Below are positions 16,095 through 49,157 of a DNA stretch of 64,000 nucleotides, piece after piece. This DNA is from Giardia intestinalis. Its lineage: Eukaryota. The notes under the pieces were generated by a model. The model searched no databases. It worked only from the letters and a program-made list of their open reading frames with translations, and was not told the DNA's origin. Position 1 is the first letter of the stretch. The number at the start of each line of letters is the position of its first letter. A program made the position numbers and the translations under genes. The stretch lies in assembly GCA_000002435.2 (NCBI GenBank), contig CM018793.1. One strand, 5' to 3'.

Positions 16095-16579
16095 AGCTTT
16101 TGTAACCAAGTACGTTTCCAATTAGTCGATCGGAAACGACGCACTCTTTGGAAACACACTAGATCGTCACCCTTTGGGAGCTCTGTTACAATGAGCCTTG
16201 TGCAACATGAGATTGGTCTTTTGCACTAGCTTGTGTCTACCGAAATGGCTTCACAGCTCTTTATCTATGACCTTGGTGATAATTGCTGAGTATTATTAGG
16301 CAATTACACACCTAAATCTCAGAGAAAACTAAGTACATGCGTTTACTTAGCCATTACACAGGATAGGGGGATTTCGTCGATGTTGATCAGTAACAATTTT
16401 CTTAGGTATGACTGGGGTAGACAAACTGTAGGGCGAATTATAGGGCCCCATACCGAACACTGCTGAACCACTGGCTAAAGAGTAACATTTGCTTCTGATA
16501 TTTCTAATTCAATTACATACCGGCTCCATTCTTGACGTCACAGCTCTACGCAAGGGCTGTCCCCTGTTCTCACAGCGCT

Positions 16580-19500
16580 ATGAAGGACACATCTACCGAA
16601 TCTATGCAGCAGTGTAGCACTGCAATAACAGCTATATCTCTCATTCTAAAGAGGGCCATAACTGCCTCCGAAAGCGTGCATCGAGAACTGAACGATGATG
16701 TTACAGTCGTTCATCATAATACGGTCCAGGCTGCCATGAATACTGACAATTATTCTCTAAATATGGACTACGAGCAAGAACTTCTTCAACTTAGAGAGGA
16801 GCTACACGCTGAGCTTAAGAAACTGTTGTCGACACTAGTTGGTGAATACCTACGGCATAAAGATTTAATAGAGTCGTTATCTAGAAGATTAGAGAGCCTG
16901 TGCTCTATAGAGGCCAAACAGGTATCCGGTGCACCTTCAAATCAACCAAGCAGTGATCTTCCATCTTCATTTCCTAATATCCATCGGCCTGAAGATAACG
17001 TCATAGCCACTGCAGCCGATGCCATTATAGAAGATCTAATTTTGCAGCATGCTCCCAACTTGTGCCTTGATTTGACGGAGATTCAGTTATGGGGTAAAAG
17101 AGCTAGTCTTCCTGTATTAATTGGCATCGTTAACCGGCTTATTTTGCAGTATACTACCACAGAGCTTACACTTTCTGAAATAACGCAAATACTTAATTCT
17201 ACAATTACTAGCATAAATGATTTAAAGCTTTCCTTTGAGCTATTAACCTCCCATCTAACTAGAGACGCCTTCAGACTAGTAGATATTAGCCATACTAATC
17301 CACCAAGAGGAAAAGGTGCAAGTATCATTGAACCTCTTTGTCTAGCATTATTATATTGGCTAACCGAATTGATACTTAAGGCTAAAGAAAAAGATTCTCA
17401 AATTGAAGCCATATTTTGTGCAGATAGAATGTCTGATGACGCGACACTTAAAGACTTGATGATGCAGTTGCAAGTCATTCGAGCAGACAACACTAGCACT
17501 CTGCTATCTGAGTCTGCCCTTTGGGAAGTAGAAGATAACCTGGAATGCCGCAAAGCTGAGCTACTGGTGGAGTCATGTAAAGAGGCGTCGGTGCTACTCA
17601 TTGAGAAGGACCGATATGTTCAAGAGATCAATAAGCTATTGACGATTCTGCTGAGTATTTTACATAAGAACAGCAGCCTTCCTTGTCCTTCTTTCAACGG
17701 GTCTCTTCTTTCAGATTTAGTTTCATCCAAGCTAGCTCTGCAACGGGTTGAGTTGGAGAAACAGCTGCTGGCCTGTTCTACGTCCTCAGTATTGCTGAAA
17801 AAGCTTATAATCTTACATGTAATGCGCCACTATGGCTATTCATCATCCCTGGATGTATGGTCTGTTCCATTAGGACCCCACGACAGTCTGTTGGTGGAGC
17901 AAGAGTATCTCTCTGCACAGGAATATTCAGCTCTTGCAAACTTACATAGTAATCATAGCGACTACGAGAACAAAGCGCTCTTGATGAAATTGATAGCGGA
18001 ACTCACTGAAGATCTGGATGCAGCCAAGCAGCTGCTAGATGGGCTTTCACTTAATATGTGCATTCCTGAGATAATTTTAGATAATACTGAGCAGTCTACC
18101 GATCCTTTATATTCATTGTCAGACTTAGATTGCTTTTCCAGTTTAGACGTAATTAGGAAACCTCTTATGATTCTATCCTACGAAGAATCTATTCCACAGA
18201 TAGCTGGACTTAAATGTAGATCTGGAAGTCATAAGGACTCTAGCAACCAGATTACTACTCTGACAGAGGATCTTCAAGCCATGATTTTGGATCATACATC
18301 TGATCAAGAGGTTTCTTTCTTATCTGCAACACAGTACACTGCCAGGACAACAATGAAAGAGCTTAGTGAGCTCATCCAAAGTAGGCTCCAGCTGTTCAAG
18401 ACTATCTGGGAAGATCTTTTAGAGATTGCTGGAAAGCGAAAAGAGATAATGAAGAATATCAAAGGTTTCTTATCTGGCTGCATCGACGAAGTGTCTAGTA
18501 CAGTAGCAGATTCTTCTCAAAAGCTGTCGCTGATTGTCAAGGATGCGCTTTTGCACGCTTTGAAACTTCTTTCCGCATCACCTTCAGCAAATATGGATCT
18601 GCTGAAAATCATATTGAACAAACTAAAGCATCAATTAGAAGAATTTGAGGTCAAGTGCATGCACAGTTCATGCGAGCTCCGATTCGATCTCTTAGGGGAG
18701 ACCCTGTCAATAGAGTCGGTTCTGGATGAATTCATTGAAAAAGCTCAACTCCAATATGACATGGTGATATCAAGAGCATATTTGACCGTCACCTGGACAA
18801 AGCTGATTTGTCTTAAAGAGTGTTGGTATCCTAGGCCCATGGCCGAACCCTTATTAATGGGACACAAGGCTCATTGCTCATCTATACACTCGGCCATAGA
18901 ACACTTCGTTACACCTATAGCCGTTCGCCAGGCACTATTGGATACGTTGGATGCACTAGCTTTGCAACCAAATACAGACACGTCTTTAGCTGAAGACGAT
19001 TTGCATGTTTCAGGCTTGGTGATCAGTCGCCCAACACCTCATCTTACCGCCAGTATCAAGGATAGTAAGAAGACTGCATCTAGCGTTTGCAGCGTCTCGT
19101 CAACTATTTCCGCTGCATCTTCGTTAGCATGCAAAGTAGCGGCCGACGTGCTCGCGCCAGATGCATCTGAAAAGGGGTATATTAGTGCCCTTCAAATGTC
19201 GCAATATGCCAAGGTTTCTAACTATGCTTATTCTGCGGCTCATTCTACTTTTGCTACTGATTCGGTAACCAGAACAAAACAGAGCACTGGATCATTGATG
19301 GCCAGTCAAGCTGTTTACAAGTTAGGAACTGGCGTCAAGGCAAGGCAACATGACACTTTATTCAACGGATATTCAGAAGATGTGGACACCCCCATGGAGC
19401 ATGGAACCATACACTACTTTGATGAAAATTATGACAAGCTCTATGTGGTTAAAGCTCTGGGAAGTTTGCGGAGACCGGAGGTGCGGATGTTGGAATACCT

Positions 19501-19864
19501 GTTTGGGTACATGAAGCGTCCCCACCATGTTCTTTACTGGACGGCAAAGGCGTTGCATCTCTGTGATTGCGCGGTTTATCTTTCCGCCAACCTACAAGCT
19601 ATCGTCATAACGCACTGTGAAAAAACCATCTGTTCAATCTCATCGCGATCCCTCGTGGCTGTGACAGAAAATCCTCTCAAAATGCATCCTATAGATAAAG
19701 CAACTCGTTCTCTTCCTCTTGTTTTATCAACCAGCAATAAGGGAGATTTAATGCTACTTTTCACTGAAGAGAGAGGAGCAGTGGTTTTTAAGGTTGGTTT
19801 GCAAACACTTGTCCGACACCGTAATAACCTCTCTAGACTGGCAATTGTAAGTCAGTGCGAATAG
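16580..19864 (+). CDS. Hypothetical protein (~1,094 aa from first ATG)
   Basis: The track ORF 16532..19864 begins with TTG; the first in-frame ATG is at 16580 (MKDTSTESMQQ...). Long uninterrupted ORF with no recognisable domain. Confidence 0.6.
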   Translation: MKDTSTESMQQCSTAITAISLILKRAITASESVHRELNDDVTVVHHNTVQAAMNTDNYSLNMDYEQELLQLREELHAELKKLLSTLVGEYLRHKDLIESLSRRLESLCSIEAKQVSGAPSNQPSSDLPSSFPNIHRPEDNVIATAADAIIEDLILQHAPNLCLDLTEIQLWGKRASLPVLIGIVNRLILQYTTTELTLSEITQILNSTITSINDLKLSFELLTSHLTRDAFRLVDISHTNPPRGKGASIIEPLCLALLYWLTELILKAKEKDSQIEAIFCADRMSDDATLKDLMMQLQVIRADNTSTLLSESALWEVEDNLECRKAELLVESCKEASVLLIEKDRYVQEINKLLTILLSILHKNSSLPCPSFNGSLLSDLVSSKLALQRVELEKQLLACSTSSVLLKKLIILHVMRHYGYSSSLDVWSVPLGPHDSLLVEQEYLSAQEYSALANLHSNHSDYENKALLMKLIAELTEDLDAAKQLLDGLSLNMCIPEIILDNTEQSTDPLYSLSDLDCFSSLDVIRKPLMILSYEESIPQIAGLKCRSGSHKDSSNQITTLTEDLQAMILDHTSDQEVSFLSATQYTARTTMKELSELIQSRLQLFKTIWEDLLEIAGKRKEIMKNIKGFLSGCIDEVSSTVADSSQKLSLIVKDALLHALKLLSASPSANMDLLKIILNKLKHQLEEFEVKCMHSSCELRFDLLGETLSIESVLDEFIEKAQLQYDMVISRAYLTVTWTKLICLKECWYPRPMAEPLLMGHKAHCSSIHSAIEHFVTPIAVRQALLDTLDALALQPNTDTSLAEDDLHVSGLVISRPTPHLTASIKDSKKTASSVCSVSSTISAASSLACKVAADVLAPDASEKGYISALQMSQYAKVSNYAYSAAHSTFATDSVTRTKQSTGSLMASQAVYKLGTGVKARQHDTLFNGYSEDVDTPMEHGTIHYFDENYDKLYVVKALGSLRRPEVRMLEYLFGYMKRPHHVLYWTAKALHLCDCAVYLSANLQAIVITHCEKTICSISSRSLVAVTENPLKMHPIDKATRSLPLVLSTSNKGDLMLLFTEERGAVVFKVGLQTLVRHRNNLSRLAIVSQCE

Positions 19865-20892: not shown

Positions 20893-23097
20893 CTACGCCT
20901 TGCCTCTGCACATAAACCACCAGCAGAGGAAACCGACGAGGCCGCCGACGACAATGATGACAGCCACGGCAATACCAGCGATGGCGCCAGTGGAGAGCCC
21001 GCCCTTGTTAGTGTTCTCGCCACTCTGCACGAGGTAACAGAGGACAGACCCTTTATCGTTAAGTGGAGGAGCGCAGCTAGCGCAGTTGGCGACGCCGGTG
21101 ATGGTGCTATCAGCGGTATTTGCCGTGCAAGACACACAGGTAGTCCCAGATTTGTAGTACCCAGTGCTGCAAATGTCGCAATTTGAGGCGGATCCTGCAC
21201 ACGTAGCACAGCCAGTGGCACACTTTGTGCACTTATTATCAGTCTTTACATACCCATACATGCATGTAGTACACACGGTGTTACTAGTGCAGGTCTTACA
21301 TCCAGGCGAGCAAGTCACAAGGTCATTGTTATTAAGATGATAGCCTGGAGCCTCTGTTTTGCAGGTATCCCCATCCTGCGTTACCTCCTCACAGACGTTC
21401 TTTCCAGGAAGTTTGGTCGTCTCATAGCAGCCCCCGTTCATACGAAGAAGCCCGTTGGCGCATTTGTTGCAAACACCACCTCCTTGAGTAGTGCACGTAA
21501 TAGCCTTTCCGGCCGCCGCCGAGCAGACTCCGTTCTGTGGAAACTGGTTGGCGTCCTTGCACTTGGAGCAGTAGGCCGTGCCATCGACTGTCAGCTCGCA
21601 CTTCTCGCAGTTGTTAGTACCCGGTTTGCATTCTGATTTGCACGTCCCCGTGTTGCCCTCTCCTTCGTAGCTGAGGGCCTTCTTAGGCTCGCAGCTCGTG
21701 CACCCGTTGGAGTTCCCGTTCGCGCATGTCTTACACGAGGTATCGCACTTGGCACAGGCGGCTCCGCTCTTGTAGTACCCGTCCTTGCAGGTATCACACT
21801 GTCCCTGAAGATTGCACAGGAGGCAGTTCTCAACCTCGCACTTCTTGCAGGCCTTCTTGCCCCCCTCGTTGGTGCCCGCGTAGTAGCCTCCCAGATCTCC
21901 GCAGTTATCGATGCACTGGCCCGTGGGCGTGAGGGCCTTGGGGCCTTCGCACTCTGTGCACACCTCCTTGCTTGTCTTCGGCTCGCTGCACGTCTTGCAG
22001 CCGGGGGTGTTGCACTGGGGGTCGGGCTTCTTCGTGCACCCGGTGCCCGCGCCGTTGAGAACGTAGCCATCAACGCACTCACAGGTGCCAGCGGTCTTTT
22101 CATCGTTGGAGTTCGAGGGGCAGTTCTCAACGCACGACTTCTTTCCAAGGCCAAACTTGGTCTTCGTACCACTCGTACATGTCTTGCAAACCACTCCGGT
22201 GGGGCCTTTCTCACAAGTGGTGCAGTCAGTTGTTCCAGCCGACACACATGTATTGCACTCCTTTGCTCCTTCATCAACGTAATGAGTTTCCGGGCAGCCT
22301 TTTGCGTCAACGCATGTGCCAGTTGTGGACTCGCCATCCTTCTTCAGGTACGGCTTGTCTCCGTTGCAGGAGGTGCACTTCGCAGCCTCGGTTTTACAGG
22401 TCTTGCATGTCTCAGCGCACTTGCTGCATTTTTTACCGTCAGTTGTATCGACGAAAAAGCCTGGGGCATCCGTGCACTCTTTTTCTGTCACGCAGGAGGT
22501 GGCTGGGTCTGTGGCCGTCTTCAGATACTTATCCGCCTGGCACGCAGTACACGTCGCCACCTTAGCCCCGCTGGCATCGGCTGGCGCAGGTGCATCGCAC
22601 GCTGTGCACCCATCCACGCCTTTGTACGTCTTATCAGCAAGCGTTACGCCCGTCGCGTCTCCGCACGAAACAACCGAGTCGTGGGTCTTATCTGCCCCCG
22701 GCGGAACAAAGTAAGCCTTCGATTCGAGAGCTTCTGTACACTTTCCGTCTGCCGCTGTTTTGCACATGCTACTGCCAGGTGCTTGACTCGTTTGGTAGCA
22801 GCTGCCCTTGTACATGAAAGTCTGCTCGGCGCACTGTGCACAGGTCCGATCAGCTGTATCGCCTCCATCGGCACCTTTACAGTTGGCTTTTGCACCTTCT
22901 TTGTCTGCACATTTTCCATTGATAGGAACAAATCCTGTGTTACATCGAGAGCAATACAATTTACCATCAATTAGAACGTCGCAGATTTCACAGTCATTTG
23001 TTTTATCTGCGCATTCAGCCTGTCGCGCGCGCTCTGTTACTTTTTCTGCCAACGCAATCTGGACGAGTACCCCCGCGAGAACAAAACTGCCAAACAT
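20893..23097 (-). CDS. vsp: Variant-specific surface protein (VSP), ~735 aa
   Basis: Signal peptide MFGSFVLAGVLVQIALA at the first ATG (the track start at 23247 is TTG). There are dozens of CXXC motifs and GGCY motifs (MNGGCYETTKLPG). The C-terminal TM helix AIAGIAVAVIIVVGGLVGFLCWWFMCRGKA* carries the invariant CRGKA tail. Coding sequence is GC-rich. Confidence 0.9.
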   Translation of the reverse strand: MFGSFVLAGVLVQIALAEKVTERARQAECADKTNDCEICDVLIDGKLYCSRCNTGFVPINGKCADKEGAKANCKGADGGDTADRTCAQCAEQTFMYKGSCYQTSQAPGSSMCKTAADGKCTEALESKAYFVPPGADKTHDSVVSCGDATGVTLADKTYKGVDGCTACDAPAPADASGAKVATCTACQADKYLKTATDPATSCVTEKECTDAPGFFVDTTDGKKCSKCAETCKTCKTEAAKCTSCNGDKPYLKKDGESTTGTCVDAKGCPETHYVDEGAKECNTCVSAGTTDCTTCEKGPTGVVCKTCTSGTKTKFGLGKKSCVENCPSNSNDEKTAGTCECVDGYVLNGAGTGCTKKPDPQCNTPGCKTCSEPKTSKEVCTECEGPKALTPTGQCIDNCGDLGGYYAGTNEGGKKACKKCEVENCLLCNLQGQCDTCKDGYYKSGAACAKCDTSCKTCANGNSNGCTSCEPKKALSYEGEGNTGTCKSECKPGTNNCEKCELTVDGTAYCSKCKDANQFPQNGVCSAAAGKAITCTTQGGGVCNKCANGLLRMNGGCYETTKLPGKNVCEEVTQDGDTCKTEAPGYHLNNNDLVTCSPGCKTCTSNTVCTTCMYGYVKTDNKCTKCATGCATCAGSASNCDICSTGYYKSGTTCVSCTANTADSTITGVANCASCAPPLNDKGSVLCYLVQSGENTNKGGLSTGAIAGIAVAVIIVVGGLVGFLCWWFMCRGKA

Positions 23098-23559
23098 TGC
23101 CCGATTGATAGATTGGTAGGAACATACTCGCGGTACATCAGTCAATCCGCGTCGATTGATGCAGTTGATTGATCCTTCTGGCACACGTTGACCACAGGCG
23201 CTGATGGAATCAACACTCACCGGGTCTATCGCGAACACTACTTGCAATCTGCAATCTCGGCACAGGGCCAGAAGGAGGTGGATTGAGCCGAACAGAACTG
23301 CGGCTGTCTCAATGTGTATGTCATACTAATGCACCTCGTGGCTCCGTTGCAATCTGTACGGACCATCCAGTGCGAGCCAAAGCTGCCACACGTGCACTGG
23401 GACAGTACTGCCCAGTAGCGGTCCAGAGCTTTCAATGGCTCCATCAACGGCCCACTGACAACTGCAAGGGCGACCCCCGCAGCTCTGCATAACGTGCATC
23501 CAAGGCCCGAGAGGCAGTGCACAGCAACGAGCGTCTCTCAGATGCGCCAGGAGCCCGTC

Positions 23560-25090: not shown

Positions 25091-26455
25091 ATGCAGATGT
25101 CCAGGAAATTTTTGTTAGCAATATTTATTCTACAACTGGCATGGGCCGTCCAAGTAGAAGATGAACGTGAAGAGGCAGCCAGTGACAATGTCAGTACGTC
25201 CGGGATATATAGTTTCACCATCGAAGACAAAAGGTATTGTCCCCAATGCAACCATAGTGAAGACAATCCTGACTCCATAAGCAGAGAGCATGTGGTAAAC
25301 AACACCATAAATAGCAAAGAGGCAGAAGAAGAGCCCACCAAATGCGGCGAGAATCTATACTTAAAAGTGGATTCAGGGACAACTTCATGCGTAGCAGGCG
25401 AAGACTGTGGAACTGGATCATTCCCTGGGACTGATAGTGCTGGTAATAGGAAGTGCATTTCTTGTAGCGATAGCGCTAACGGAGGCATACAACACTGTAG
25501 TGAATGCTCCTTGCTCGCTCCTACGAGTAGATCTGTCACTGTCCTTATCACGTGCTCTAAATGCTCTGCTAATAATCTTAGCCCTTTGGGCGATAAATGC
25601 TTAAGAAAGTGTCCTTTTGGGACATATGATAATGGTGATAACGTCTGTGCTCGCTGTCATGAATCGTGCGCTAGTTGCAATAACAGTCCTGAACCTACTT
25701 CTTGCACTTCTTGTTATCCAGGGTTTGTACTGGATCACGCTGGTGGGCCTGCTGGCACATGCATCCCAGAGTGCACGGGAAGATACGCGGAGAACTGCGA
25801 GGCTGGCCAGTGCACGGCTGTTGTGGGAACGTCCAAGTACTGCAGCAAGTGCAAGACTGGATACGTCCCAGTAGATGGTATTTGCGTATCGACAGCAACA
25901 AGAGAAGTCATGGGATGCACGCCAGGAAACGACGGGACATGTACGGCCTGTACAGGTACATATTTCTTACAATCTGGTGGCTGTTATCAGTCAACAGCGT
26001 ATCCTGGTATGAGATTATGTGAGCAAGCTCAAGATGGAAAGTGCACAAAGTGTGCTAACTTGCAAGCTGTAGATAAACAGGGCTCTTGCCCCTTGTGTGA
26101 AACTGGATGTGACCTATGCGGTACTTCAAGGACGACAGCATGCCAGGCTTGCTTTCCTGGATACTATCACTCTGGCACTAAATGTTTTAAGTGTACAGAT
26201 GATAGTGATGAAAGCGGTGTGAAAATCACTGGCGCCCCTAATTGTGTAAGCTGTGAACCCCCTAATCCCGGCAAGTCTGGTCCTGTTACATGCTATGTAA
26301 CACAGCAACCAAATAACGATAATACTGGGTGGTCCATGAATAGTAATGCACTTTCCCCGGGGGCCATTACAGGGATCTCTATTACAGTTATCCTTATTAT
26401 CGGTGGCGTGGCTGGCTTTCTTTGCTGGTGGTTCTTTTGCCACAAGAAAAAATAG
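25091..26455 (+). CDS. High-cysteine membrane protein (HCMP; VSP-like CXXC/GGCY protein lacking the CRGKA tail), 454 aa
   Basis: ATG start with signal peptide MQMSRKFLLAIFILQLAWAV. Multiple CXXC motifs and GGCYQSTAYPG. The C-terminal TM helix ITGISITVILIIGGVAGFLCWWFFCHKKK* ends in CHKKK rather than CRGKA. Confidence 0.85.
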   Translation: MQMSRKFLLAIFILQLAWAVQVEDEREEAASDNVSTSGIYSFTIEDKRYCPQCNHSEDNPDSISREHVVNNTINSKEAEEEPTKCGENLYLKVDSGTTSCVAGEDCGTGSFPGTDSAGNRKCISCSDSANGGIQHCSECSLLAPTSRSVTVLITCSKCSANNLSPLGDKCLRKCPFGTYDNGDNVCARCHESCASCNNSPEPTSCTSCYPGFVLDHAGGPAGTCIPECTGRYAENCEAGQCTAVVGTSKYCSKCKTGYVPVDGICVSTATREVMGCTPGNDGTCTACTGTYFLQSGGCYQSTAYPGMRLCEQAQDGKCTKCANLQAVDKQGSCPLCETGCDLCGTSRTTACQACFPGYYHSGTKCFKCTDDSDESGVKITGAPNCVSCEPPNPGKSGPVTCYVTQQPNNDNTGWSMNSNALSPGAITGISITVILIIGGVAGFLCWWFFCHKKK

Positions 26456-32331: not shown

Positions 32332-33336
32332 ATGCCAGTGGCAAAGCCTTTAATAAAGACTATCAAACTTTGGATGTCTGGTGGGTTCAGTTTCGGAGCT
32401 CCCGCTCAAGCATCTTCCCAGCCACAAGGTAAAGCACCTGGATTCTCCTTTGGATCTGGCTTTGGCCCCGCGCAGTCAACGCAGTTAACCCAACAGCCAC
32501 AGCAGTCACAGCCTGCCCCATCATTCACGTTCGGTGCATCATCCACAAGTGCACCAACCTCAGCCAACACTGGAACTACTGGCTTTGGATTCAGCTTCGC
32601 GGCTAAGCCGCAGGTCTCAGGGGCTGGAGGCATCGGCCAGACAACTTCTTCCGTAGCTCCCACAACAACGGCGCCAACTACAGCATCTGCTCCTGCTCCC
32701 TTTTCATTTGGGGCACCTGCTGCTCAGTCTTCACAACCTGCACAGCCCACACAACAACCACCGCCGTCAACAGCACCAGCAACCACTGCACCTTTTGCAT
32801 TTGGCAAGCCGTCCGAGCCTGTCACTGTTAATAAGGCAAAGGAAGATCAGCCGTCAATAGCTAGTGGAACACAACCAGTCATGGATGCCCGGCTCGTTGA
32901 ACTGGAGGGCAAAAAGGTCTCAGGTATTCTTGATAACTTGTATAGTGTTCTTTTAAAAGATTTAGGTACAGCTAACAAGCATTCTGCCGCATTGATAGCT
33001 TGCGAGAAAGACATTGAGCTTCTCGAGGAGACCATGAAACAGTTTTCCTCGAAGCTCACATATATTCAGCAAAAACAGTCTGCTACAGAAGAATCACTGC
33101 GAAAGCTATATGAGCTGCAATGTGATGTCCTTGATATTGTAAAGAAAATGGAAGATTATTCGCAGTACACTGCGCACCCCTTAACCCACGCCATCAATAC
33201 CGTGGAGAGTAATCTTCTGACCCTGGAACAGAAAATCTTGTCATCAAGCGTTATCGATAGAGAAGTACTAGAAGTGTATCAAGGTCTCCAGAGGCAGATT
33301 TCTCTTATAGCTATGCTCGAGGCGGAAGCGCAGTAA
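32332..33336 (+). CDS. FG-repeat protein with C-terminal coiled coil; candidate Nsp1/Nup62-type nucleoporin
   Basis: The N-terminal ~170 aa is S/T/A/P/Q-rich with FSFG, SFGSGFG, FTFG, FGFSFA, FSFG and FAFG motifs. The C-terminal ~150 aa is heptad-rich (LVELEGKKVSGILDNLYSVLLKDL...LEAEAQ). This is the architecture of Nup62/Nsp1-family central-channel nucleoporins. Confidence 0.55.
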   Translation: MPVAKPLIKTIKLWMSGGFSFGAPAQASSQPQGKAPGFSFGSGFGPAQSTQLTQQPQQSQPAPSFTFGASSTSAPTSANTGTTGFGFSFAAKPQVSGAGGIGQTTSSVAPTTTAPTTASAPAPFSFGAPAAQSSQPAQPTQQPPPSTAPATTAPFAFGKPSEPVTVNKAKEDQPSIASGTQPVMDARLVELEGKKVSGILDNLYSVLLKDLGTANKHSAALIACEKDIELLEETMKQFSSKLTYIQQKQSATEESLRKLYELQCDVLDIVKKMEDYSQYTAHPLTHAINTVESNLLTLEQKILSSSVIDREVLEVYQGLQRQISLIAMLEAEAQ

Positions 33337-33344
33337 CTGAGTCA

Positions 33345-36300
33345 CTACTCTCCTACTGTGTGTCCTGGGCGTATGTGCCACTTTTTAAGCATTGAAATAA
33401 AGCGAGAGTTACCAATTTCAGAAGCCATGGATAGAGCTGTTTGTCCGCTACAGTTCCGCATTCCCAGCTCCTTATCTACTAACAGCAGCGCAGTTTCATA
33501 TGCATTATATTGCACACAGTACATGAGAGCGGTCATTCCTCGGTCATCTTTCATTCCACTCTCATGGGGGACAAGAGCTCTGGATAGTGCTGTATCTCCC
33601 AAGGCTATGGCGTGCATAAGGGCCGTTGCCCCCACGGCATCGCGGGCCCCACAGCCTAGAGGAATACATAATTGTGCAAATGGGAGTTTGTTGGCCTTGA
33701 TGGCATATATGAGAGACGAGTCGCAACCAGGACACCAGACGTTTGCCTCAAACGCTAGAATCTCAGCGCACTTGTAGTGTCCTGATTCTATGGCGACGAT
33801 GAGCCCGGTTTTTCCTTCCTTGGAGAGTATTTTGCCCTCGTGTGTAGATAGGTGCCTTACACCACCCACGTTCCCCACCTCCGCAGCAATCATAAGGGCT
33901 GTGATGCCTGTTTCTGTGACCGTCATTCCATATTCTTCAGAGAGAAGTGGGATGGAGGAGTTAAACGAGAGGAATGCGGCATACATCAAGGCAGTCCACC
34001 CTCTAGAGTCCTTATGACGCACTTGGTGTAAATGCTTTTTTACCTCGACTATGCTTTTCTTTTTGATAGAGTTGATTAGACCTAGCTCGCTATCACGGAG
34101 CATCGTGCTATGGGACATATTAAGTTGTGAAAGCTGCCTGACTGCATCGGGATCGTTTGCTGCAAATGGACCGGAAACAATAAGATTTGAAGAGGCTCCT
34201 AAACTGCTTTGATAACCAAAAAGGCCAGACGAGTGGGCTGATTGCCGAAGAACTTGTTGAGACGCCAAAGATGGAGATACTTGCCGAGAATTTCGCAAGA
34301 TCTGAGCGAGTCCTTTGTCATGTGTTGACCGAGCGCTTAGTGGCATTGCGCATACGCGCTCAATGCGAACCAGATCTTCCTTAGAAACGCAGTCTTTAAG
34401 CTTAGCCCAGTGGAGCTCTCCGAGTGCATCCCTAGCCGAGTCGATCAGATCAAGAGCCAGCTGTTTCATTCCCTTGCGCATAACATATTCTAGCGGAAAC
34501 ATGCCGTCTCTGCCTCTAATCATAAGTTCATACGGAGCCAGAAGCATCGCTATCTTAAGCATCCCCATTTCCAGAGCCACGGAGAGTGCAGTGGCCCCGT
34601 TCTTCTCACGCTTACCAGCATGCTCAGGTATAAGCTGAAGAATTTCTCTGGTAGGGTCATTATTCTTGACTGCGGCAATTAGAGGAGAACCTGTGTTTCG
34701 ATACAAAAGCTCTGGATGGCAAGACGTTGGTCTTTTCCGCTGCTTGATTGGTGTGCATTCGTTTGTCTCCTTTGTATCAGGCTGAGTCGTCGACAGTAAC
34801 AGAGTGCTTGCTACACTGGGAACAGCGTATTGATTAAATGTATCAACAGCAGACGCCTGCGAATTTAGAAGGATGCTCTGATTGCGTTGAAAGTCTTCCG
34901 CTAGAATAAGAATATTGACGATATCTCTGTTATTTAAACTTCGGGCTAAATCTATGGGAAGTAGATTTTGTGGACCGTGGATGCGGGATTCAAACCGAGC
35001 TAGAATGCGCACAAAGGATCGACGATTTAACCTTATAGCATGAGTTAGAGCGGTATTGGAAGAGGAATCGATGCAGCCACATTGAGACGGAGTGTACTTT
35101 TCAACACCACTTGGCAGATTATAAATCACGGATAGAATCAAACCTGTCTTCTTATCAGCGCCCACTAATAGCACCCCAGATGTTACTACGGCTTCTACTA
35201 GCTCTGTCATATTCTGGATGAGGGCGAACTCAAAGGCTTGAGTTGAAAGCAATATATTTGAGGTCAATTTCTGATGAAAAGCTTGTAGAGAAGACATGGT
35301 CTCTTCCAACTCCTTCACTAAAACAACAGCCTCATCAGATAGGAAAGCCTGCACTTGGTCGTTTTTATTTGTTACCTGCTTAATTCCCTCCGCAGAGTTG
35401 CATGCAGGGAGACTGTCATTAAGAGAAATATTAGAGACATCTAACGTTCCGCTTAAGCTACTATCCTCTCGAAGATTCTCTGCCTGACGATAGACCGGCT
35501 CAATCTTTTCGCTCCGAGAGAGAATTATGTGAGACTGAGGCCTGGGACGAGACGCTATAGAAGATAGGCTGGCAGAAGCAGTCTTTGCCTGCATATGCTG
35601 GGCTGCCGCGGTACGTAAAGTCTGAGTTCTATCAACACTACATGGAGCCTTTCTCATCATAGAAGTTCCTGACAAAGGTCTTCTGGTCCTTTCTGGAGTG
35701 ACGGCCGTCGGGATTAGCTTGTTAGCTTGAAAATACTCATACTCAAATATTCGTTGAACAGATCTCTGCAAGTCCCTAAATGACCGCAAAGATGTAATCC
35801 GCCGCAAGTAGAGAACTGTCTGCTCGAGCTCTGTGCTATACGTTCCATTAGGTACATATGCCATTGCATATGCCAGGATACTTCCCAGCTGGTTCGCGTC
35901 GTGGCAGGCGGAGACCGGTGCTTCTGGGTACATATCGTATCCTGTAGTGTGTTCCTTCCGAAATCTAAGTTGTCGAGCCATGGAGTGGATGTCACCGAAT
36001 GCGTAATCCGCGATCAAGATGGTGTCCCCAGTCACTGACGCCACAACATTTTCGAGAGAGAGGTGACCATGTATGTAGTGTCCCCCATTAATAGCCTCCA
36101 GAACAACAAGGCCTTCTATGATTCCTTTGCAGATCCTTCGCAGAAAGAGGTCTGGTGGCGCCTTCTGATGTGTCGCGGCCACTCGCAGAATATCTGCCAA
36201 AGAGCGGGAATTGTCGTACTTATACCCCAGCTTAATGGATCTCTGCGGTGACTCAGCATTATCTAGATGTATAACATCGTATGAGATAACTTGGGGCACT

Positions 36301-36584: not shown

Positions 36585-39245
36585 ATGTCTAATAGCAATC
36601 TTGATTCATATTTGCGTTCTGCTCGTCATGCGCCTGTGCTGCATTGTCCTTTTAGCATATATTCGGAGCTGCAGCACTTAAAAGACTCTAGCGATCTTCC
36701 CTCATTCCTTTTACGTCCGCTGAGCTATAGCTTATCCCGCTTTAACTTATTTAGAAGCGCAGGGTCCATCTCATTTTCAGCCGCACTAGCTCCTGCAGCT
36801 CCCCATGAACACTATGCATATCCGTGTCTTGCCTCACTGGTCCAATTTCTAGGCTACAGGCCAGAGGACTGTAATGCATCCGTGGAACTCGAAAAGCCTC
36901 TGCAAAATCATGATGTCTGCACATATATAGCTTCACCTGACGAGCTGGCGTGCGCTCTATCACTCCTCGGCACCCAACACACCCATCCACCTGATCTTGA
37001 GAGCGATACCACGAGCGACAGTGAAGAGCTGTCTGATGATCAACAATCGCCCAACAGGTCTCGCCCCAGAACTCACGTCGAGCTCCATTTGCAACACCTC
37101 CGGAGGTCAATTCCGCGTCCAAAATCAACTAAGCATGCAAATCTTTACTTACTTCGGGCATCATCTAGGCCTACTGTCTGTCCGAATATCATTCTCGTCG
37201 AAGACAGTGGGGGTGCTGGACTTGCTGCACTTTTTCGATCGATATGTCATCGGGTAAGTGACGTTTATAGCAATCTGCCTGTCCACAGTATCTTTTCAAC
37301 CGTTTATTCGACAAGTATTGGAGAAAAGCAGTGCTTAACAATGGCGCATAGAGGCTTGCAGATGCAATGTTGTAACGACGGTGCTACTAGTGACCTTGCT
37401 ACTGAACGTGTGCTCTTCACAGTCCAAGAATCAAAGAGAATCATGCGCTTATTCAATCGCAAAGAGCGCCAGAAAGACGGGACCTGGACAAAGAGACCCC
37501 GCAAACCCTTAGTATCTCCATCAGAGTCTATAACACAGGCTCTTTTGCGTGCCAAGGCTGCTGCTCAAACAAATAGCAAAGATGAAGATAAAGAGACATA
37601 CCAATTCTCCTCTTCTCTCTCCCCCTCTTCTTCTGAGTCCTCCCTTACTGCGCAACACAAACATAAAATTACATCCTATTTTAGCTATTTGTCAGGCTAC
37701 CCCACCCTTGCATGGCCCCCCGTAACAGTCATTGACTTTAGTCCCATTCAATACAACATCTCTACGTTTGATATGTGCAGCGAGATAAGCTTCAGCCTAG
37801 GTACGGTCCATAAGGAAGCAGGGACAAAGGCGGCTAAGCGGCCAATTCTCGTGGGCTATAGCAGACACCGCTTTAGCTACAGACGACAACTTTTTCGTGC
37901 GCAACTTTTTTATCATATGCTATCTAATTCCTCAAGCTACAAATTGGAAAGTGACAAGTATTACTATAATAGTCTAAATGATTGCATGGACCTACACGTA
38001 GAACAGGCAGTAGTTGAGAAGAGAAAAGGCCAGTTTCGTCCATTATCGGTTCAGGAAGTGCTCTGCGGGATAACTGGAGAGAGTAGATCCCTGGATGAAG
38101 TGGTGCAAAAGATCAGCGAGCCTGCTGATATCATCCCTCCCAAAAAAGTACCAGAGACGAAAAGAACCCAGAAGAAAAATGCAAAATCTAGTAGCAAGCA
38201 TTCTATCTTAGATCAAATGGTAAAGGTATCTCAGAAGCCATCAGAGGCAATAGACTGTGAGGTCGGCGAACCACTAAGAAAGCAGCTACCTTCATCCACC
38301 GTCCTAGACGCAGACTCTTTTATTAAGCTATTTAACAAAACATCAGACAGTAACATAAGCTCAATGCAGCACCTCGGAAGGGACGCACCTGTGCCGACCT
38401 TCATTAACGGTCGAGGCCGGGCGCAACATGAATACTCGCTCATTAATGAGTACTCAGCAGATGATCGGGAGGACATCTCTTTTATTAGTGTGCCGTTGTG
38501 TGAGATTGCTCCATTTAATTGTAGCCACTTATTTATGCTCAAAGATGTGGCTTCAGACATAGCCAAGTATAAAGCGCTTGCTTGTGAGGCACTTGTCTTA
38601 GCATGCTATGACACCGCCAGCTGGCAGGCGTCTAAGCATACGCTATCTCTGCGTCCAGACATACGCCAGCTTTCCAACCTTATACACTTTTGGGGAGATG
38701 CAGCGAGTATGCCCCTGGTGGCTAAGCGAAAACAGGGTGCTGCCTGGCCAGATCACACGTATGCAGACGTTATAGAAATATGTTCGTCTCTTTGTGGCGG
38801 GTTCCTCATTCTGTCGGGGTCATCTCACTTGTCACTGCATCAAGCATCTACTGGGCAGGCTAGTTGCACGATTGAAATAAGTCATATCGTGAATAGTGAA
38901 AGGATTCAGTCAGCCGTTCGCTATGTTCTGTTGTCGCAGAAAGGGTCTCGAAAGCGATACAGAGTAGACTTTGTACCGGAGACGTGTCCAGCACTTCCCG
39001 TAACAGAGAAGTACATATCGTATCTGGAACGTGCAGATCATCAAGATACCATACAATACAATATATCACTCAACATGGACCAGAAAGGCATATGGGGTGA
39101 TATTCTGTTGGCTAGTGGCGAGATCATGACCAGAAGAATGGTAGACATGGTACACATGGCGCTCCCGATGGTCGACTACGGGGCACCAAGCAGCGTACTT
39201 CAAGGTTTGAATGTCTTAAAAAAATGGTCTTATTTGTTGCTTTGA
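36585..39245 (+). CDS. Hypothetical protein (886 aa)
   Basis: Long ORF from ATG (MSNSNLDSYLRS...). The start sits at 36585 per the track, or 36586 by my reading of the displayed sequence, an unresolved ±1 discrepancy. No recognisable domain. The 3' end overlaps the next gene by 22 nt. Confidence 0.55.
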   Translation: MSNSNLDSYLRSARHAPVLHCPFSIYSELQHLKDSSDLPSFLLRPLSYSLSRFNLFRSAGSISFSAALAPAAPHEHYAYPCLASLVQFLGYRPEDCNASVELEKPLQNHDVCTYIASPDELACALSLLGTQHTHPPDLESDTTSDSEELSDDQQSPNRSRPRTHVELHLQHLRRSIPRPKSTKHANLYLLRASSRPTVCPNIILVEDSGGAGLAALFRSICHRVSDVYSNLPVHSIFSTVYSTSIGEKQCLTMAHRGLQMQCCNDGATSDLATERVLFTVQESKRIMRLFNRKERQKDGTWTKRPRKPLVSPSESITQALLRAKAAAQTNSKDEDKETYQFSSSLSPSSSESSLTAQHKHKITSYFSYLSGYPTLAWPPVTVIDFSPIQYNISTFDMCSEISFSLGTVHKEAGTKAAKRPILVGYSRHRFSYRRQLFRAQLFYHMLSNSSSYKLESDKYYYNSLNDCMDLHVEQAVVEKRKGQFRPLSVQEVLCGITGESRSLDEVVQKISEPADIIPPKKVPETKRTQKKNAKSSSKHSILDQMVKVSQKPSEAIDCEVGEPLRKQLPSSTVLDADSFIKLFNKTSDSNISSMQHLGRDAPVPTFINGRGRAQHEYSLINEYSADDREDISFISVPLCEIAPFNCSHLFMLKDVASDIAKYKALACEALVLACYDTASWQASKHTLSLRPDIRQLSNLIHFWGDAASMPLVAKRKQGAAWPDHTYADVIEICSSLCGGFLILSGSSHLSLHQASTGQASCTIEISHIVNSERIQSAVRYVLLSQKGSRKRYRVDFVPETCPALPVTEKYISYLERADHQDTIQYNISLNMDQKGIWGDILLASGEIMTRRMVDMVHMALPMVDYGAPSSVLQGLNVLKKWSYLLL

Positions 39246-44104: not shown

Positions 44105-47100
44105 TCAGATCTTACCGTAAGTGGACCTTCTGCTCGGTGTAAGAGCGGTCCCAGCCCCGGAGCTGGGAGCCCTGTAGTTCAGTGCTTCTGCAGCCTTCGG
44201 TAAGTCAACTAGCATGAGCTTGTCCATCAACTCCTTCTGCCTTTCCAACTCGGTCATAACTATGGTTTTCTGTTGCGAGAGGGTGCTCATTGTTTGAGAT
44301 GCATCCAGCATGGATTTGCTGAGCCTTGTCGTCATGTTCTCTGCCTGATTGCGTAGATCGTTAATTTCTTGCTCATATCTAACATTCTCGGCTATTATAT
44401 CATCCATGGCAGACATCTGCTTGTTCAGAGCCAATATATCTTTCTTGAGAGCATCGTTTTCTGCCTTAAGTAAAAGAAATTCTTTGGTTGATGTGATTAG
44501 GCTACTGAATTTTGAATAGAGCATAGAGTGCTCCCTCTCTATACCCTCTGGATTATCTGCCGTCACTTCTATCTCCTGTATTAGTGCTCTCAGTGCATCA
44601 CGCTCCTCAATGAGAGAGGTTATGTCTACATAGGTCTTCTTAAGAGATGCCAGTTTCCGTTTCAGTATTGTTACCTCCTCGATCAGGCAAGGATCGTCCT
44701 TATGACCCAGAAACTGTGCCAATTGGTCTTCAAGATACTGTCGTTCGAGAACAGCAGCGGCTACTTCCGGGTTAGCTTGTCTTGCCTCCTCAAGTGAGCT
44801 GGAGAGTGAGGCTATCTGCCGGTCCAGAAGTGTCGGATTGGTGGAAAAATCCCGAAACTCTTGTAAGTCCTGAGACAGTTCGGCTCTGTGCTTAATTCTG
44901 GCGCTCAGGGACGTGTTGCTGTCACGAGCAGTTGCTAGCTGTACTTCCAGTGTCTCTATTTCATTTTGGAGGCGACTCTCTTGGCCTATTTGGCTCTTGA
45001 ATTCCTTTAATTCCTTTCTCAACGATAAAGCCTTATCGATCATGGTGCTAAGGTTATAGTTACTGGACTTAAACGCCTCCAATATGTTGTGCAAATTATC
45101 AATCCTGGTTTGTAGCGCCTTTGTGTTTCTCTCAGTTCCTTCTGCGCTCTCTGCTGCCATCTGGCAGTCCTCACAGAGGATGGTGAGGTCTTCTATGTCA
45201 AGAAGGCAGTTATGTATTTCTGGATAAGACTCTCGTAATTCAAGAAGGTTGTTTTGTATGACTTCGCGGCGAGTTTCTAGCTCATCTAGGGCTCCTGGCC
45301 TGAGATAATTGTCTATCTCGGCGTGCAAGTCCTTTATGTCCTGGTTCAATGCAGTTATCGCGTGATCATCCTGCTGCAGTTGTTGAAGCTGCAGTTGAAG
45401 ATGTGCCTTCTTGGCCTCTAATTGGTCAAGGACGACTTTTGGATCCTCGATGCGCTCATATTGCTTTAGTGACATTCCCAGCTCGTCGCAGTCCTTTATT
45501 AACTGGTGTAGCTGTGGATTGGCCTTCATTAGCGCATCGAAACGAAGCTGCAGATCACTCTTCTTTGTCTCGAGCAGCTCAGTATTGAGCCTCCCTTCAT
45601 GGATGTCACCAACCAACGTCTCTAGGTACTTATTTTCCTCTATGATGCTGAAAATGGAAGGATGCTTCTGTTTGAGAGCAGACAGTTGATCTACCAAGTT
45701 GGCATTTTCACGCACTATGGCAGAAGGCTGTTTAATGGCATTTGTTAAGCTATTAAGCTCTACCGTGGTTACTTCTATGCGGTTAATAAGCTCGGCTAGC
45801 TGGGGATTAGACTTCCGGAGCGTCTCCACTTCTGTTTCCAGACTCCTCTGACGGGCCTCGAGACGGCTCGGGTTATCTTTGTATGTCTTCATCTCTTCTA
45901 ATATCAGTTTGAGGTGCTCTACCTCGTTGACAAGGTGAGTGATGCCTTTTTCGCTCTTTATAGTGAAAAGCTCGGTCTGGAGTTGCGAGATATCATCAGA
46001 CAACGTCTTTTCATTGATCTCTCCGGATTTAAAGGCATTAATGAGACCTCTGAGCCGGTCTTGTTCGTCAAGTAGTAGCGAAACAGCAGAATTAGTATTT
46101 CTTAGAACGCGTGCCTCATTGCTTAACGATGTAATGACATTGCGTAACTCTGTTGTATCCAGAGAGTAGCGCTGAAGTTCAACAATCTCACGCTCTAGTT
46201 GGGCTTTCTCAGCTAAAAGTGCACCAACGGGTGACTTCTTTGCAGTATCATCTAGCGCTTTCAGTTGAGCCTTCAGTTGGGCAATTTGTTCCACGAGGCA
46301 TTCTGACTTGACAGAGTTATCTTTAGCTAATTGCGTGCTGGCTTCCAGCTTCTGCTGAAGAGAGTCAATCTCTGCAAGACGCTCAAACACATGGCTGTGC
46401 GCACTGTGCAATTCAGCAATCTCGTGCTCAATCTCTACTTTTTTCTGAGCAAGCTGGTCAGGACTATTAATATAGTTTTTGTATTGGCTCACTTCCTGCT
46501 GCATGCCCTCAACAGACTGCAGCAGCTGAAGAACATCCGGGGAGCCACGCTTCAAATCCTCCAAGGCATTGATTAGCTCACGATTTTGCTGCTCTAGCCG
46601 TGGCCTAGATTGAATAGCTATCTCTAGTGTTTGCATCTTCTCCTTCAGGCGTTCATTTTCAGCCAAAAGGGAATCTATGTCTGGGTTAAGTGTCTTCAGT
46701 TCTGCAATCTTATCTAGCAATACCTGCTTGCTTTCCTCCAAACGTCCTCTATCATCAATGCTCGCGTGGAACTCATTGATTTGCTGCAGCAAGCACAGCT
46801 TATCTTGTATGATGGATTCGATATCTGGAAAGTCGAGCTGCAATGCCGCCAGATTCTCTTGTAGCTTGTAATTATCTTCTTGCAAAGCTTCAGGATCTAT
46901 ATTTCCTTCTTTAATATCCATTATTTGGGTGCGGAGTGCGTTGTTTTCGTCCAGGAGCCTCAGAGTATTTCCGTGGGCTTCTTTCAACGCTGCTAGATTT
47001 TCCTGCAGCTGGATATAGTCCGCCTCAATTGTGAGCTTATTGCGCACTGCTGTCTCTACTGCTGCTTGCTCTTCACGGATCTTCTCCAAACCGGTTATCA

Positions 47101-49063
47101 TAGATAGAATCTCCGCACTACTCTCCTTTATTGAAGCCAGCTCTTCTTGAGACTTAACTAGCTCCCCTAGAAGTGTAGAAGGAGACTCAGCGTATAGCTT
47201 AAGCGACTTGATCTCGTTCTGAATGATGCCACGCTTTTCTAGAAGCTCCACTACTCCCGGTGAGTTTGTGCGGAGATCGTTTAGCTCCTGTTCTAGATTA
47301 CAAATCTCTGTGGCAAGAGCGGTGCTGCTGGTTGCAAGTCCATTGAGCTCCATGATCTCGTCTTGCAGAGCTGCTCTCTGCTTAGTAAGTTTCTCCACCT
47401 CTGGGTTATTGCGTTTAAGCTCTTCTTTCAGCCCGCGCATAGCCTCCACTTCGTTGTAAATTGTCTTTATATTGGCCAATGAATCTCCGAAGTTCTTGAT
47501 ATCCTGAGCCAGCTTGTTCTTATCTGCCAAAAGCCCAACGATATCTGGGTTCCCTTCTACTAGCATTGTTAGCTCTCCTCTCAATACCTCTAGTTCTTGC
47601 TCCAAGCTTTGCTTGTTATTTATGTACTCCTTAAACTCTAAGATCTCGTCATGTGTTCGCTTATAGATGTCAACGAGAAGTTTCACATCCGGAGAGGATG
47701 TCTTCAGCATTCCTAGCGTCTCCTTTTCCTGATTAAGCTTGTCAGCAAATCCAGCATTGTTGTCGAGTGCCTGCTGATAGAGGTCCACAATAGATCTGCA
47801 CTCCACATGCTCTCTAACCAGGAGGGAAATCTCTGGGTTGTTCTTTTCAAGTTCTGTAAGCTTCTGCTTCAGGCTTGTACATTCAAAAAGAGCACTTTCT
47901 AGAGTGCTGGTAGAGATGCGTTGTATCATGGAGCGCAGGTCTTCTGCCTTCTTAAGGGTCTCTGCGACATCCGGGTGGTTGGCCGCCATTTCCTGGTATT
48001 GCTTGCGAAGCAACGCATTCTCATTTAACCCATTTGTGGGAAACTGCACCATCTGCCGCAACTCTTCGATGTTCGATAGTAGCTGCTTTCTCTCTGTATA
48101 CCCTTGCATGACTGCCGGGTTGCTTTCGAGTATGGAGTCTATGCTCTGCTGGAGCATGCTTATATTATCAGTTAAACTAACAGGATTAATAATATAATTG
48201 TCCAACAGGCTTTTCTCTGCTTTGAGTTCCATGATTTTGTCAATATACACCGATGCAGTTTGATGTTTCGCGCGCTTAAGCTCAATGGTCGCTTGAAGTG
48301 CAGAGATCTGGTGCGATAGTTGGCTCAGGTCTTCCCCTGTATCCTCGGATGGCGCTGGACCATTACGAACAGGATGCTCAATTAAGGAATATAGATTAAG
48401 CTCGTGTTCTGCGTCTAAATAATCCTGTACCAAGGCCAGTGAATCCGCACTCATCGCTTTTCGAGTCTCCTCAATCTGCTTCCTCAGCAGCTCTGCCTCT
48501 GGGAGCATGACATGGCTTCCACTTGAAGCTGCCTGGATAGCTCGTGTAAGTACTTCAAGCTCCTTTTCAAGCTCTAATTTTTCAGATGTACATTTTTGAA
48601 TGGTCGGGTTTGTGCCCAAATCTGCCACCCGTGTCCGTAGCTCTTCGACTGTGCGGGAAAGAGAGCTCAACTCGGCAAGCTGATCCTGCAATTTAGTGCA
48701 TTCTTCTTTGAGAGCTTCCCTACTTCCTGATTGTTGTTCAATGGCTTCAATACTGGCAAGAAGGTCCTGTCGTGTGACAGATAACGTGGCACGCCCAGAG
48801 AGATCTTGGCAGGACGCAAGAATTGCACCATAAAGAGACTCCACCCGGCCATCGAGTTGCTGACGATACGTCTCCGAGAGCCTCTGTACCTGGAGCTGAA
48901 GCTCAGCACCAAGATTCTTCACGACTTCCTCCGGAAAAAGCCCTGCACCGCCCAAAAGCGCCAAGACATATGTGCTAAAGATATCCATTGTGCCGCTCAC
49001 AGCACCGTTCACTTCCTCGACCAGGGCACTCAGCTGCTCCAGTGGCACGGGATTCAAGGACAT
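44105..49063 (-). CDS. Very long coiled-coil protein (~1,650 aa) with a recurring L..L(R/K)..NP(D/E)(I/V)..LL module
   Basis: The track start at 49084 is TTG; the first ATG is at 49063 (MSLNPVPLEQ...). It is heptad-rich E/L/K/Q throughout. At least 12 copies of the module occur, e.g. KNNPEISLLV, SSPDVKLLV, GNPDIVGLL, NNPEVEKLT, NSPGVVELL, NPDIDSLL, GSPDVLQLL, SNPQLAELI, ANPQLHQLI, ANPEVAAAV. Confidence 0.8.
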   Translation of the reverse strand: MSLNPVPLEQLSALVEEVNGAVSGTMDIFSTYVLALLGGAGLFPEEVVKNLGAELQLQVQRLSETYRQQLDGRVESLYGAILASCQDLSGRATLSVTRQDLLASIEAIEQQSGSREALKEECTKLQDQLAELSSLSRTVEELRTRVADLGTNPTIQKCTSEKLELEKELEVLTRAIQAASSGSHVMLPEAELLRKQIEETRKAMSADSLALVQDYLDAEHELNLYSLIEHPVRNGPAPSEDTGEDLSQLSHQISALQATIELKRAKHQTASVYIDKIMELKAEKSLLDNYIINPVSLTDNISMLQQSIDSILESNPAVMQGYTERKQLLSNIEELRQMVQFPTNGLNENALLRKQYQEMAANHPDVAETLKKAEDLRSMIQRISTSTLESALFECTSLKQKLTELEKNNPEISLLVREHVECRSIVDLYQQALDNNAGFADKLNQEKETLGMLKTSSPDVKLLVDIYKRTHDEILEFKEYINNKQSLEQELEVLRGELTMLVEGNPDIVGLLADKNKLAQDIKNFGDSLANIKTIYNEVEAMRGLKEELKRNNPEVEKLTKQRAALQDEIMELNGLATSSTALATEICNLEQELNDLRTNSPGVVELLEKRGIIQNEIKSLKLYAESPSTLLGELVKSQEELASIKESSAEILSMITGLEKIREEQAAVETAVRNKLTIEADYIQLQENLAALKEAHGNTLRLLDENNALRTQIMDIKEGNIDPEALQEDNYKLQENLAALQLDFPDIESIIQDKLCLLQQINEFHASIDDRGRLEESKQVLLDKIAELKTLNPDIDSLLAENERLKEKMQTLEIAIQSRPRLEQQNRELINALEDLKRGSPDVLQLLQSVEGMQQEVSQYKNYINSPDQLAQKKVEIEHEIAELHSAHSHVFERLAEIDSLQQKLEASTQLAKDNSVKSECLVEQIAQLKAQLKALDDTAKKSPVGALLAEKAQLEREIVELQRYSLDTTELRNVITSLSNEARVLRNTNSAVSLLLDEQDRLRGLINAFKSGEINEKTLSDDISQLQTELFTIKSEKGITHLVNEVEHLKLILEEMKTYKDNPSRLEARQRSLETEVETLRKSNPQLAELINRIEVTTVELNSLTNAIKQPSAIVRENANLVDQLSALKQKHPSIFSIIEENKYLETLVGDIHEGRLNTELLETKKSDLQLRFDALMKANPQLHQLIKDCDELGMSLKQYERIEDPKVVLDQLEAKKAHLQLQLQQLQQDDHAITALNQDIKDLHAEIDNYLRPGALDELETRREVIQNNLLELRESYPEIHNCLLDIEDLTILCEDCQMAAESAEGTERNTKALQTRIDNLHNILEAFKSSNYNLSTMIDKALSLRKELKEFKSQIGQESRLQNEIETLEVQLATARDSNTSLSARIKHRAELSQDLQEFRDFSTNPTLLDRQIASLSSSLEEARQANPEVAAAVLERQYLEDQLAQFLGHKDDPCLIEEVTILKRKLASLKKTYVDITSLIEERDALRALIQEIEVTADNPEGIEREHSMLYSKFSSLITSTKEFLLLKAENDALKKDILALNKQMSAMDDIIAENVRYEQEINDLRNQAENMTTRLSKSMLDASQTMSTLSQQKTIVMTELERQKELMDKLMLVDLPKAAEALNYRAPSSGAGTALTPSRRSTYGKI

Positions 49064-49157
49064 TGCCTGTATAGTATTAGTCAAAAATTATTACAAGTAG
49101 TTGCAAAAATTATGGCAAATGCTAAATTCCGAATTTTGAGACACCTCTAAATTAAAA
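49064..49157. promoter_or_regulatory. AT-rich bidirectional promoter region between the two coiled-coil genes; classic Giardia initiator aaattaaaaATG at 49149-49160
   Basis: This 94-bp spacer (…caaaaattattacaagtagttgcaaaaattatggcaaatgctaaattccgaattttgag…acctctaaattaaaaATGtcc) is flanked by divergent ATGs. Confidence 0.55.

Follow-up and report, generated by a model that had tools for sequence, protein, structure and literature searches.

The DNA considered here is a stretch of 64,000 nucleotides of Giardia intestinalis (GenBank assembly GCA_000002435.2, contig CM018793.1), referred to below, at its full length, as the window. On its plus strand, an open reading frame (ORF) of 334 codons plus stop (32332..33336) encodes a protein identical to GL50803_7552 (XP_001707416.1) of G. 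intestinalis ATCC 50803 (assemblage A; exact protein match). The product joins an N-terminal phenylalanine-glycine (FG) repeat domain to a predicted C-terminal coiled coil, an arrangement known from the proteins that line the central channel of nuclear pores, and, judged from its sequence, it is the best candidate for the missing Nup62/Nsp1 nucleoporin of Giardia. The idea is not wholly new: the protein is called 'Nucleoporin NSP1-like C-terminal domain-containing protein' in UniRef and hypothetical at NCBI, and the basis of the UniRef name could not be reproduced in this analysis. A literature search by gene identifiers and by topic returned no paper naming GL50803_7552 or a Giardia Nup62.

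The protein itself is probably somewhat shorter than the ORF. The 14 codons upstream of Met15 (MPVAKPLIKTIKLW, window 32332-32373) are present in assemblage-A sequences only, and the orthologues from G. muris and from the other Giardia assemblages begin with the residue that corresponds to Met15 (M[SP]xGF...), which makes 32374 the most likely first position of the coding sequence. Met15 is thus probably the true start, and the probable coding sequence (32374..33336, plus strand) specifies 320 aa beginning with MSGGFSFG, as does the RefSeq record XP_001707416.2 (320 aa). An earlier, sequence-only reading of this DNA had given a product of 334 aa; its ORF stands exactly as described (32332-33336, plus strand), and its start probably has to be moved. 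Residues are numbered below from the first Met of the ORF, and all features of the protein are on the plus strand.

The FG-repeat domain (residues 15-160; 32374..32811) is predicted to be disordered and is low in charge. It contains all seven FG dipeptides of the protein, between residues 19 and 158: three as FSFG, one as FTFG, one as FAFG (hence five FxFG motifs) and two as GFG. FxFG 1 (FSFG, residues 19-22; 32386..32397) is followed by the FSFGSGFG stretch, in which FxFG 2 adjoins a GFG (residues 38-45; 32443..32466), by FxFG 3 (FTFG, residues 65-68; 32524..32535), by a GFGFSF cluster (residues 84-89; 32581..32598), by FxFG 4 (FSFG, residues 124-127; 32701..32712) and by FxFG 5 (FAFG, residues 155-158; 32794..32805); these later motifs were placed from the sequence and the alignment of orthologues. 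In FxFG 1, F19, F21 and G22 are invariant, and S20 is replaced by Asn in three of five orthologues. The residues A, S, P, T, G and Q make up 80% of the N-terminal region and charged residues about 6%, and 14 of the 15 Phe residues of the protein lie in this part. Shuffled versions of the region contain 1.6 FG on average, with a probability of 2.5e-4 of reaching at least seven. Of the ORFs in the window that are 100 aa or longer, the candidate is the only one with an FxFG motif; after it, the largest number of FG is four, in ORFs of 1944-2760 aa. A charged/polar linker (residues 161-184; 32812..32883), also predicted to be disordered, connects the FG domain to the C-terminal domain.

The last 150 residues are rich in Leu, Glu and Lys; the periodicity of their hydrophobic residues is strongest at exactly 3.5 residues, with a power that none of 2000 shuffles attained. 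When AlphaFold2 (AF2) was run on the full-length alignment, residues 1-185 were disordered (predicted local distance difference test, pLDDT, of about 30) and devoid of secondary structure, and helices were predicted at residues 186-248, 253-279, 283-304 and 310-333. For the C-terminal domain alone, the AF2 model has a pLDDT of 85, and its helices span positions 9-106, 110-131 and 137-160 of the domain. In these models the protein ends with a three-segment helical coiled-coil tail running to its C-terminus, made of a long helix (residues 186-279; 32887..33168), a second helix (residues 283-304; 33178..33243) and a third one (residues 310-333; 33259..33330). The sequence-only reading had proposed at least six FG repeats in an N-terminal low-complexity region, S/T/A/P/Q-rich spacers between them and a heptad-rich C-terminal part of about 150 residues, and it had suggested looking in an AlphaFold model for a disordered FG region followed by a three-helix coiled coil; each of these features was recovered.

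Relatives of the protein were sought by a word-indexed search, by an exhaustive HMMER scan that covered 1.84 billion representative sequences and by a second profile search. They were found in the G. intestinalis complex (64-98% identity), in G. muris (GMRT_10118, 287 aa) and in one related metagenomic sequence (271 aa; locus L001 6001-6816), the latter two being about 30% identical to the candidate in the coiled coil. One SEA-repeat protein that also emerged was dismissed as spurious. In an alignment of five sequences of the G. intestinalis complex, 20 of the 24 FG-core columns (83%) are invariant, compared with 47 of the 171 spacer columns (27%), of which 31 are gapped; the C-terminal domain has 114 invariant columns out of 150. 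Motifs conserved amid fast-evolving, composition-constrained spacers are a known signature of FG nucleoporins. The conservation pattern of the candidate, as read from these alignments, appears typical of such proteins, which strengthens the interpretation drawn from its architecture. FG motifs are retained in G. muris, in a different flavour, although its C-terminal domain is so divergent. The number and type of motifs drift within the genus, from seven to nine (five of them FxFG) in the G. intestinalis complex to four in G. muris (FGFG, xFGG) and two in the metagenomic sequence. We consider it quite likely that the candidate is a coiled-coil-anchored FG nucleoporin.

Which nucleoporin it could be is a question of the C-terminal domain. 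A survey of nucleoporins across eukaryotes reported a Nup54 in Giardia, and neither a Nup62 nor a Nup58 (Neumann et al. 2010; PMC2951903, Table 2). A Nup62 profile was built from the pan-eukaryotic alignment of that survey (supplementary file 55), with the C-terminal blocks of those 33 sequences that were most complete, and compared by hhalign, with no secondary structure in the scoring, with the family of eight Giardia C-terminal domains. In local mode, the two profiles matched with a probability of 73%, an E-value of 3e-5 and a score of 36.3 over 144 collinear columns, which start at the first helical residues of each domain and continue almost to its C-terminus; a six-sequence version of the Giardia family scored 35.5. 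In global mode, the probability was 81% and the score 34.9 over 154 columns. The first 92 columns of the alignment are free of gaps and place GKKVSGILDNL over GKT(L/V)EEIINKW of Nup62 and CEKDI over WD(K/R)xI, and two Gln of the Giardia proteins fall on the two conserved Gln of Nup62 segment 1. The only two gaps coincide with both of the helix breaks predicted by AF2 (positions 106/107 and 131/132 of the C-terminal domain). The long helix of the candidate thereby forms a gap-free alignment with coiled-coil segment 1 (CCS1) of Nup62/Nsp1 (an entry name of 7TBM reads 'NUP62 CCS1'), and the second helix is aligned to segment 2 and the third to segment 3, in the region of ...ILNxHxxxLxWI....

Controls and reference scores give a scale for this match. 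In global mode, reversed controls scored 24.4 and 22.3, 80 block shuffles reached at most 27.0, and the Nup54 profile scored 24.1. A circular-permutation control in the same mode was not clean, small shifts leaving the alignment intact. As a single sequence, the C-terminal domain of the candidate (score 23.6) ranked above all of 200 real Giardia segments of 160 aa, the best of which scored 23.5, and the candidate was the best-scoring ORF of the 64-kb window with the Nup62 HMM. Accepted Nup62 proteins that were left out of the profile one at a time scored 156 for Trichomonas (probability 99.7%), 70-92 for kinetoplastids and apicomplexans, and 38.9 for Encephalitozoon cuniculi (probability 86%), so that the Giardia match ranks with the most reduced accepted Nup62. 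The minimal Nup62 of this microsporidian resembles the candidate both in the length of its C-terminal domain, which measures about 142 aa when counted from the start motif to the C-terminus, and in its similarly marginal score (38.9 versus 36.3). They differ in that the E. cuniculi alignment spans the first 79 columns only, whereas that of Giardia runs from end to end, and in that the E. cuniculi protein was assigned to the family by Neumann et al. (PMC2951903) and the Giardia one was not. Trichomonas vaginalis, the nearest metamonad sampled, belongs to the same supergroup and its Nup62 has the same domain order; its C-terminal domain is unmistakably that of a Nup62, whereas the Giardia protein has diverged much further.

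A number of observations weigh against homology with Nup62. In local mode the reversed query still reached 32.1 (29.0 for the reversed target, and no more than 30.3 in 300 shuffles of columns or blocks), and much of the local score of 36.3 is thus a coiled-coil bias; global mode separates the native comparison from its controls better than local mode. A segment of the 1659-aa coiled-coil ORF at 44105-49084 (minus strand) nearly equals the single-sequence score of the candidate (23.5 versus 23.6), and the Nup62 profile therefore has a high coiled-coil background. Taken alone, each Giardia subfamily scored only 21-24 against the Nup62 profile, and the pair of G. muris type aligned to it in a register shifted by 14 residues, i.e. 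two heptads. A profile made of metazoan Nup62 only (41 sequences, Neff 2.3) gave nothing by hhalign (E 0.95), and the pan-eukaryotic profile is thus needed to see the match. Both Trp residues of the Nsp1_C signatures (NKW; WD[KR]x[LI]), present in Nup62/Nsp1, are lost in Giardia, where DNLY and CEKDI (QEEGI in G. muris) carry L/Y and C/Q instead; the acidic residue and the Ile of the second signature are kept at the aligned positions. No match to Pfam Nsp1_C (PF05064) was obtained with the full protein at E<=1, nor with the C-terminal domains of all family members at E<=10, so that the profile check suggested by the sequence-only reading came out negative for this model; the precomputed Pfam field of the candidate is likewise '-', and, unlike Nup62/Nsp1, the protein reaches no Pfam threshold. 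The exhaustive HMMER and profile searches retrieved no homologue beyond the genus Giardia that would bridge to other eukaryotes. An HMM of the Giardia C-terminal domain searched against PDB sequences retrieved generic coiled coils only (a de novo protein, BLOC1S2, a spike heptad repeat and BORCS7) and no nucleoporin, and the literature searched yielded no localisation or interaction data for the candidate. The profile comparison is thus suggestive of homology, not proof of it. The sequence-only reading had called the protein a strong nuclear pore candidate: this is fair with regard to architecture and FG-core conservation, but membership of the Nup62 family is unproven and the margin over controls modest.

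The candidate also has several features in common with Nup62/Nsp1. As in vertebrate Nup62, a disordered N-terminal FxFG domain with uncharged, Ser/Thr/Ala/Pro-rich spacers precedes a C-terminal coiled coil. The N-terminus is of the MSGGFxFG type and the FxFG motifs stand in PAxFxFGA-like contexts (alignment of Neumann et al., PMC2951903). The three coiled-coil segments are long, short and short, and terminate the protein; GK(T/K)(V/L)xxI(I/L) opens the domain, and (W/C)(D/E)Kx(I/L) follows 24 residues on. The candidate differs from Nup62/Nsp1 in being far smaller (320 aa and seven FG, as against dozens in yeast Nsp1) and in its shorter coiled-coil segments 2 and 3 (22-24 aa). With less assurance than its assignment to FG nucleoporins as a whole, we judge it likely that the protein fills the Nup62/Nsp1 position as a functional counterpart, probably as a very divergent orthologue. 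Since the Nup54 slot is filled in Giardia by another protein, gi 159117887, a channel trimer is expected there. The mode of action proposed here is drawn from the known channel trimer (Nup62-Nup54-Nup58, or Nsp1-Nup57-Nup49). Together with Giardia Nup54 and a Nup58/Nup49-like protein as the third chain, the C-terminal helices would make up a heterotrimeric, parallel coiled coil, which a Nup93/Nic96-like protein would clamp to the inner ring by its N-terminal helix. The FG domain, about 145 residues long, with its seven Phe-Gly motifs and its uncharged, cohesive spacers, would reach into the channel of the pores in the two nuclei, where it may help to form the permeability barrier and provide low-affinity docking sites for importin-beta-type receptors.

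An alternative with the same mechanism is that the candidate is a subunit of the channel trimer in another paralogous position, either a Nup58/Nup49-like protein or a second Nup54-like one. Nup54 (PF13874) is the sole nucleoporin model seen in the Pfam scans; it was matched by all members of the G. intestinalis complex at E 0.04-0.07, with 13.5 bits, under half of the cut-off of 30.5, so that the sequence-only reading's suggested check against Nup54 gave a sub-threshold similarity only. The other Pfam matches to the coiled coil of the family are to miscellaneous coiled-coil families. In local hhalign mode, the Nup54 profile scored 31.7 against the Giardia family, with reversed controls at 24; the score of the same profile in global mode (24.1) is far from the 34.9 of Nup62. 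Nup54/Nup57 proteins also share with the candidate an FG region and a three-segment coiled coil that belongs to the same trimer. However, the candidate is devoid of the alpha/beta region and of the W..A..NPDP....P.P..GF..L..R motif that precede the coiled coil of Nup54. That motif is conserved (W..A..PD....P....GF..L..R) in gi 159117887, the Giardia Nup54 candidate of Neumann et al. (PMC2951903, supplementary file 53), which matched a 27-sequence Nup54 profile with a probability of 96% and a score of 55. The Giardia Nup54 orthologue is thus a different gene, and identity of the two proteins was rejected on the grounds that their sequences differ. As for the third position, an FG region and a coiled coil are also found in Nup58/Nup49, and in yeast Nup49 the FG region is N-terminal and the coiled coil C-terminal, as in the candidate. 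These proteins carry GLFG or other FG repeats, and in vertebrate Nup58 the coil is flanked by FG on either side, whereas the candidate has no C-terminal FG region, and its FxFG repeats and MSGGFSFG start are typical of Nup62/Nsp1 and not of the GLFG-type Nup49/Nup57. The Pfam model Nucleoporin_FG2 was not matched at E<=10 in general Pfam scans, no dedicated Nup58/Nup49 profile having been built. We regard a paralogous position as unlikely.

About as improbable, in our view, are, taken together, two other outcomes for the module as a whole, namely that the channel is lined by a genus-specific miniature FG protein with a coiled coil of other descent than that of Nup62, the otherwise near-universal Nup62 having been lost and convergently replaced, or that the module has been cut down to a two-protein unit with Nup54. 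Another, quite doubtful explanation is that the candidate, as an FG nucleoporin specific to the lineage, was either invented in Giardia or arose as a convergent replacement, so that its coiled coil is not homologous to those of Nup62, Nup54 and Nup58 and it is anchored to the pore in some other way. The confinement of its relatives to the genus in the searches made here, its invisibility to standard database models and the overlap of the Nup62 similarity with the coiled-coil background are what such a protein would present, and lineage-specific FG nucleoporins are known in kinetoplastids (PMC2742445). On the other side, the Nup62 match is collinear and covers the whole domain, with shared domain boundaries and with gaps at the helix breaks; the order of segment lengths is that of Nup62; and Giardia possesses a Nup54, which needs partners. 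A divergent Nup62/Nsp1 counterpart remains the reading that we favour.

Structure searches are uninformative on homology with Nup62/Nsp1. With the full protein as query, phmmer placed human Nup62 first among PDB sequences (E 0.017). This match was discounted because its register is about 35 residues off the profile alignment, because the T/S/A-rich region contributes to it and because it is lost with profiles of the coiled coil only. The coiled-coil HMM (residues 185-334; window 32884-33333) had two subunits of a single BORC entry, 9tqb, among its top four PDB matches: BLOS2 (E 0.016) and BORCS7 (E 0.057). These matches probably reflect composition, and they are the sole recurring lead to something other than a nucleoporin. 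The corresponding explanation is a small cytoplasmic coiled-coil subunit outside the pore (BLOC-1/BORC-like, cytoskeletal or tethering) with a low-complexity N-terminal tail whose FG motifs would serve, for instance, in condensates or in adaptor binding. Many coiled-coil cytoskeletal proteins are known in Giardia, two of them encoded in this window, and FG-repeat proteins also occur outside the pore (PMC8311347); yet this explanation has little probability, for the BLOS2 and BORCS7 matches are not significant and stand amid de novo coiled coils and viral heptad repeats, Pfam BLOC1_2 was matched in one of six family members (E 0.33), BLOC/BORC subunits lack an FG domain such as that of the candidate, and strictly conserved FxFG cores in PAxFxFGA-like contexts follow the Nsp1/Nup62 pattern.

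If correctly assigned, the candidate would be a very divergent, miniaturised Nup62-type protein and a useful entry point to the poorly defined pore of Giardia, an organism that has two nuclei and whose nuclear pore complex is among the least catalogued. A small and easily tagged putative central FG nucleoporin could provide a handle for purifying this pore, and it would permit testing how universal the channel trimer is and how many FG motifs a working barrier requires at minimum. Such an assignment would bring no conceptual surprise, since every eukaryote is expected to have a protein of this kind and the automatic database name agrees.

In the genomic surroundings of the gene, a divergently oriented phospholipase B gene (minus strand) has its ATG at 32311, 20 nt from Met1 of the candidate and 62 nt from Met15. 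On the other side, the stop codon of the candidate, which ends at 33336, lies tail-to-tail with that of a minus-strand ORF of 1046 aa encoding an ankyrin-repeat protein (stop at 33345-33347). Only 8 nt separate the two stop codons, and the 3' untranslated regions of the two genes must therefore overlap. Besides phospholipase B and this adjoining ankyrin-repeat protein, the window encodes STT3. It also includes three large ORFs without a Pfam match at E<=0.001, all on the plus strand: 5901-14183 (2760 aa), 16532-19864 (1110 aa) and 36585-39245 (886 aa). The ORF at 44105-49084 mentioned above is adjacent and divergent to a second long ORF (49158-51731, plus strand, 857 aa), both being strongly coiled-coil. 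Finally, two variant-specific surface protein (VSP) genes are located about 6-11 kb upstream of the candidate, at 20893-23247 on the minus strand and 25091-26455 on the plus strand, and match the Pfam VSP model with E-values of 3e-152 and 2e-57, respectively.

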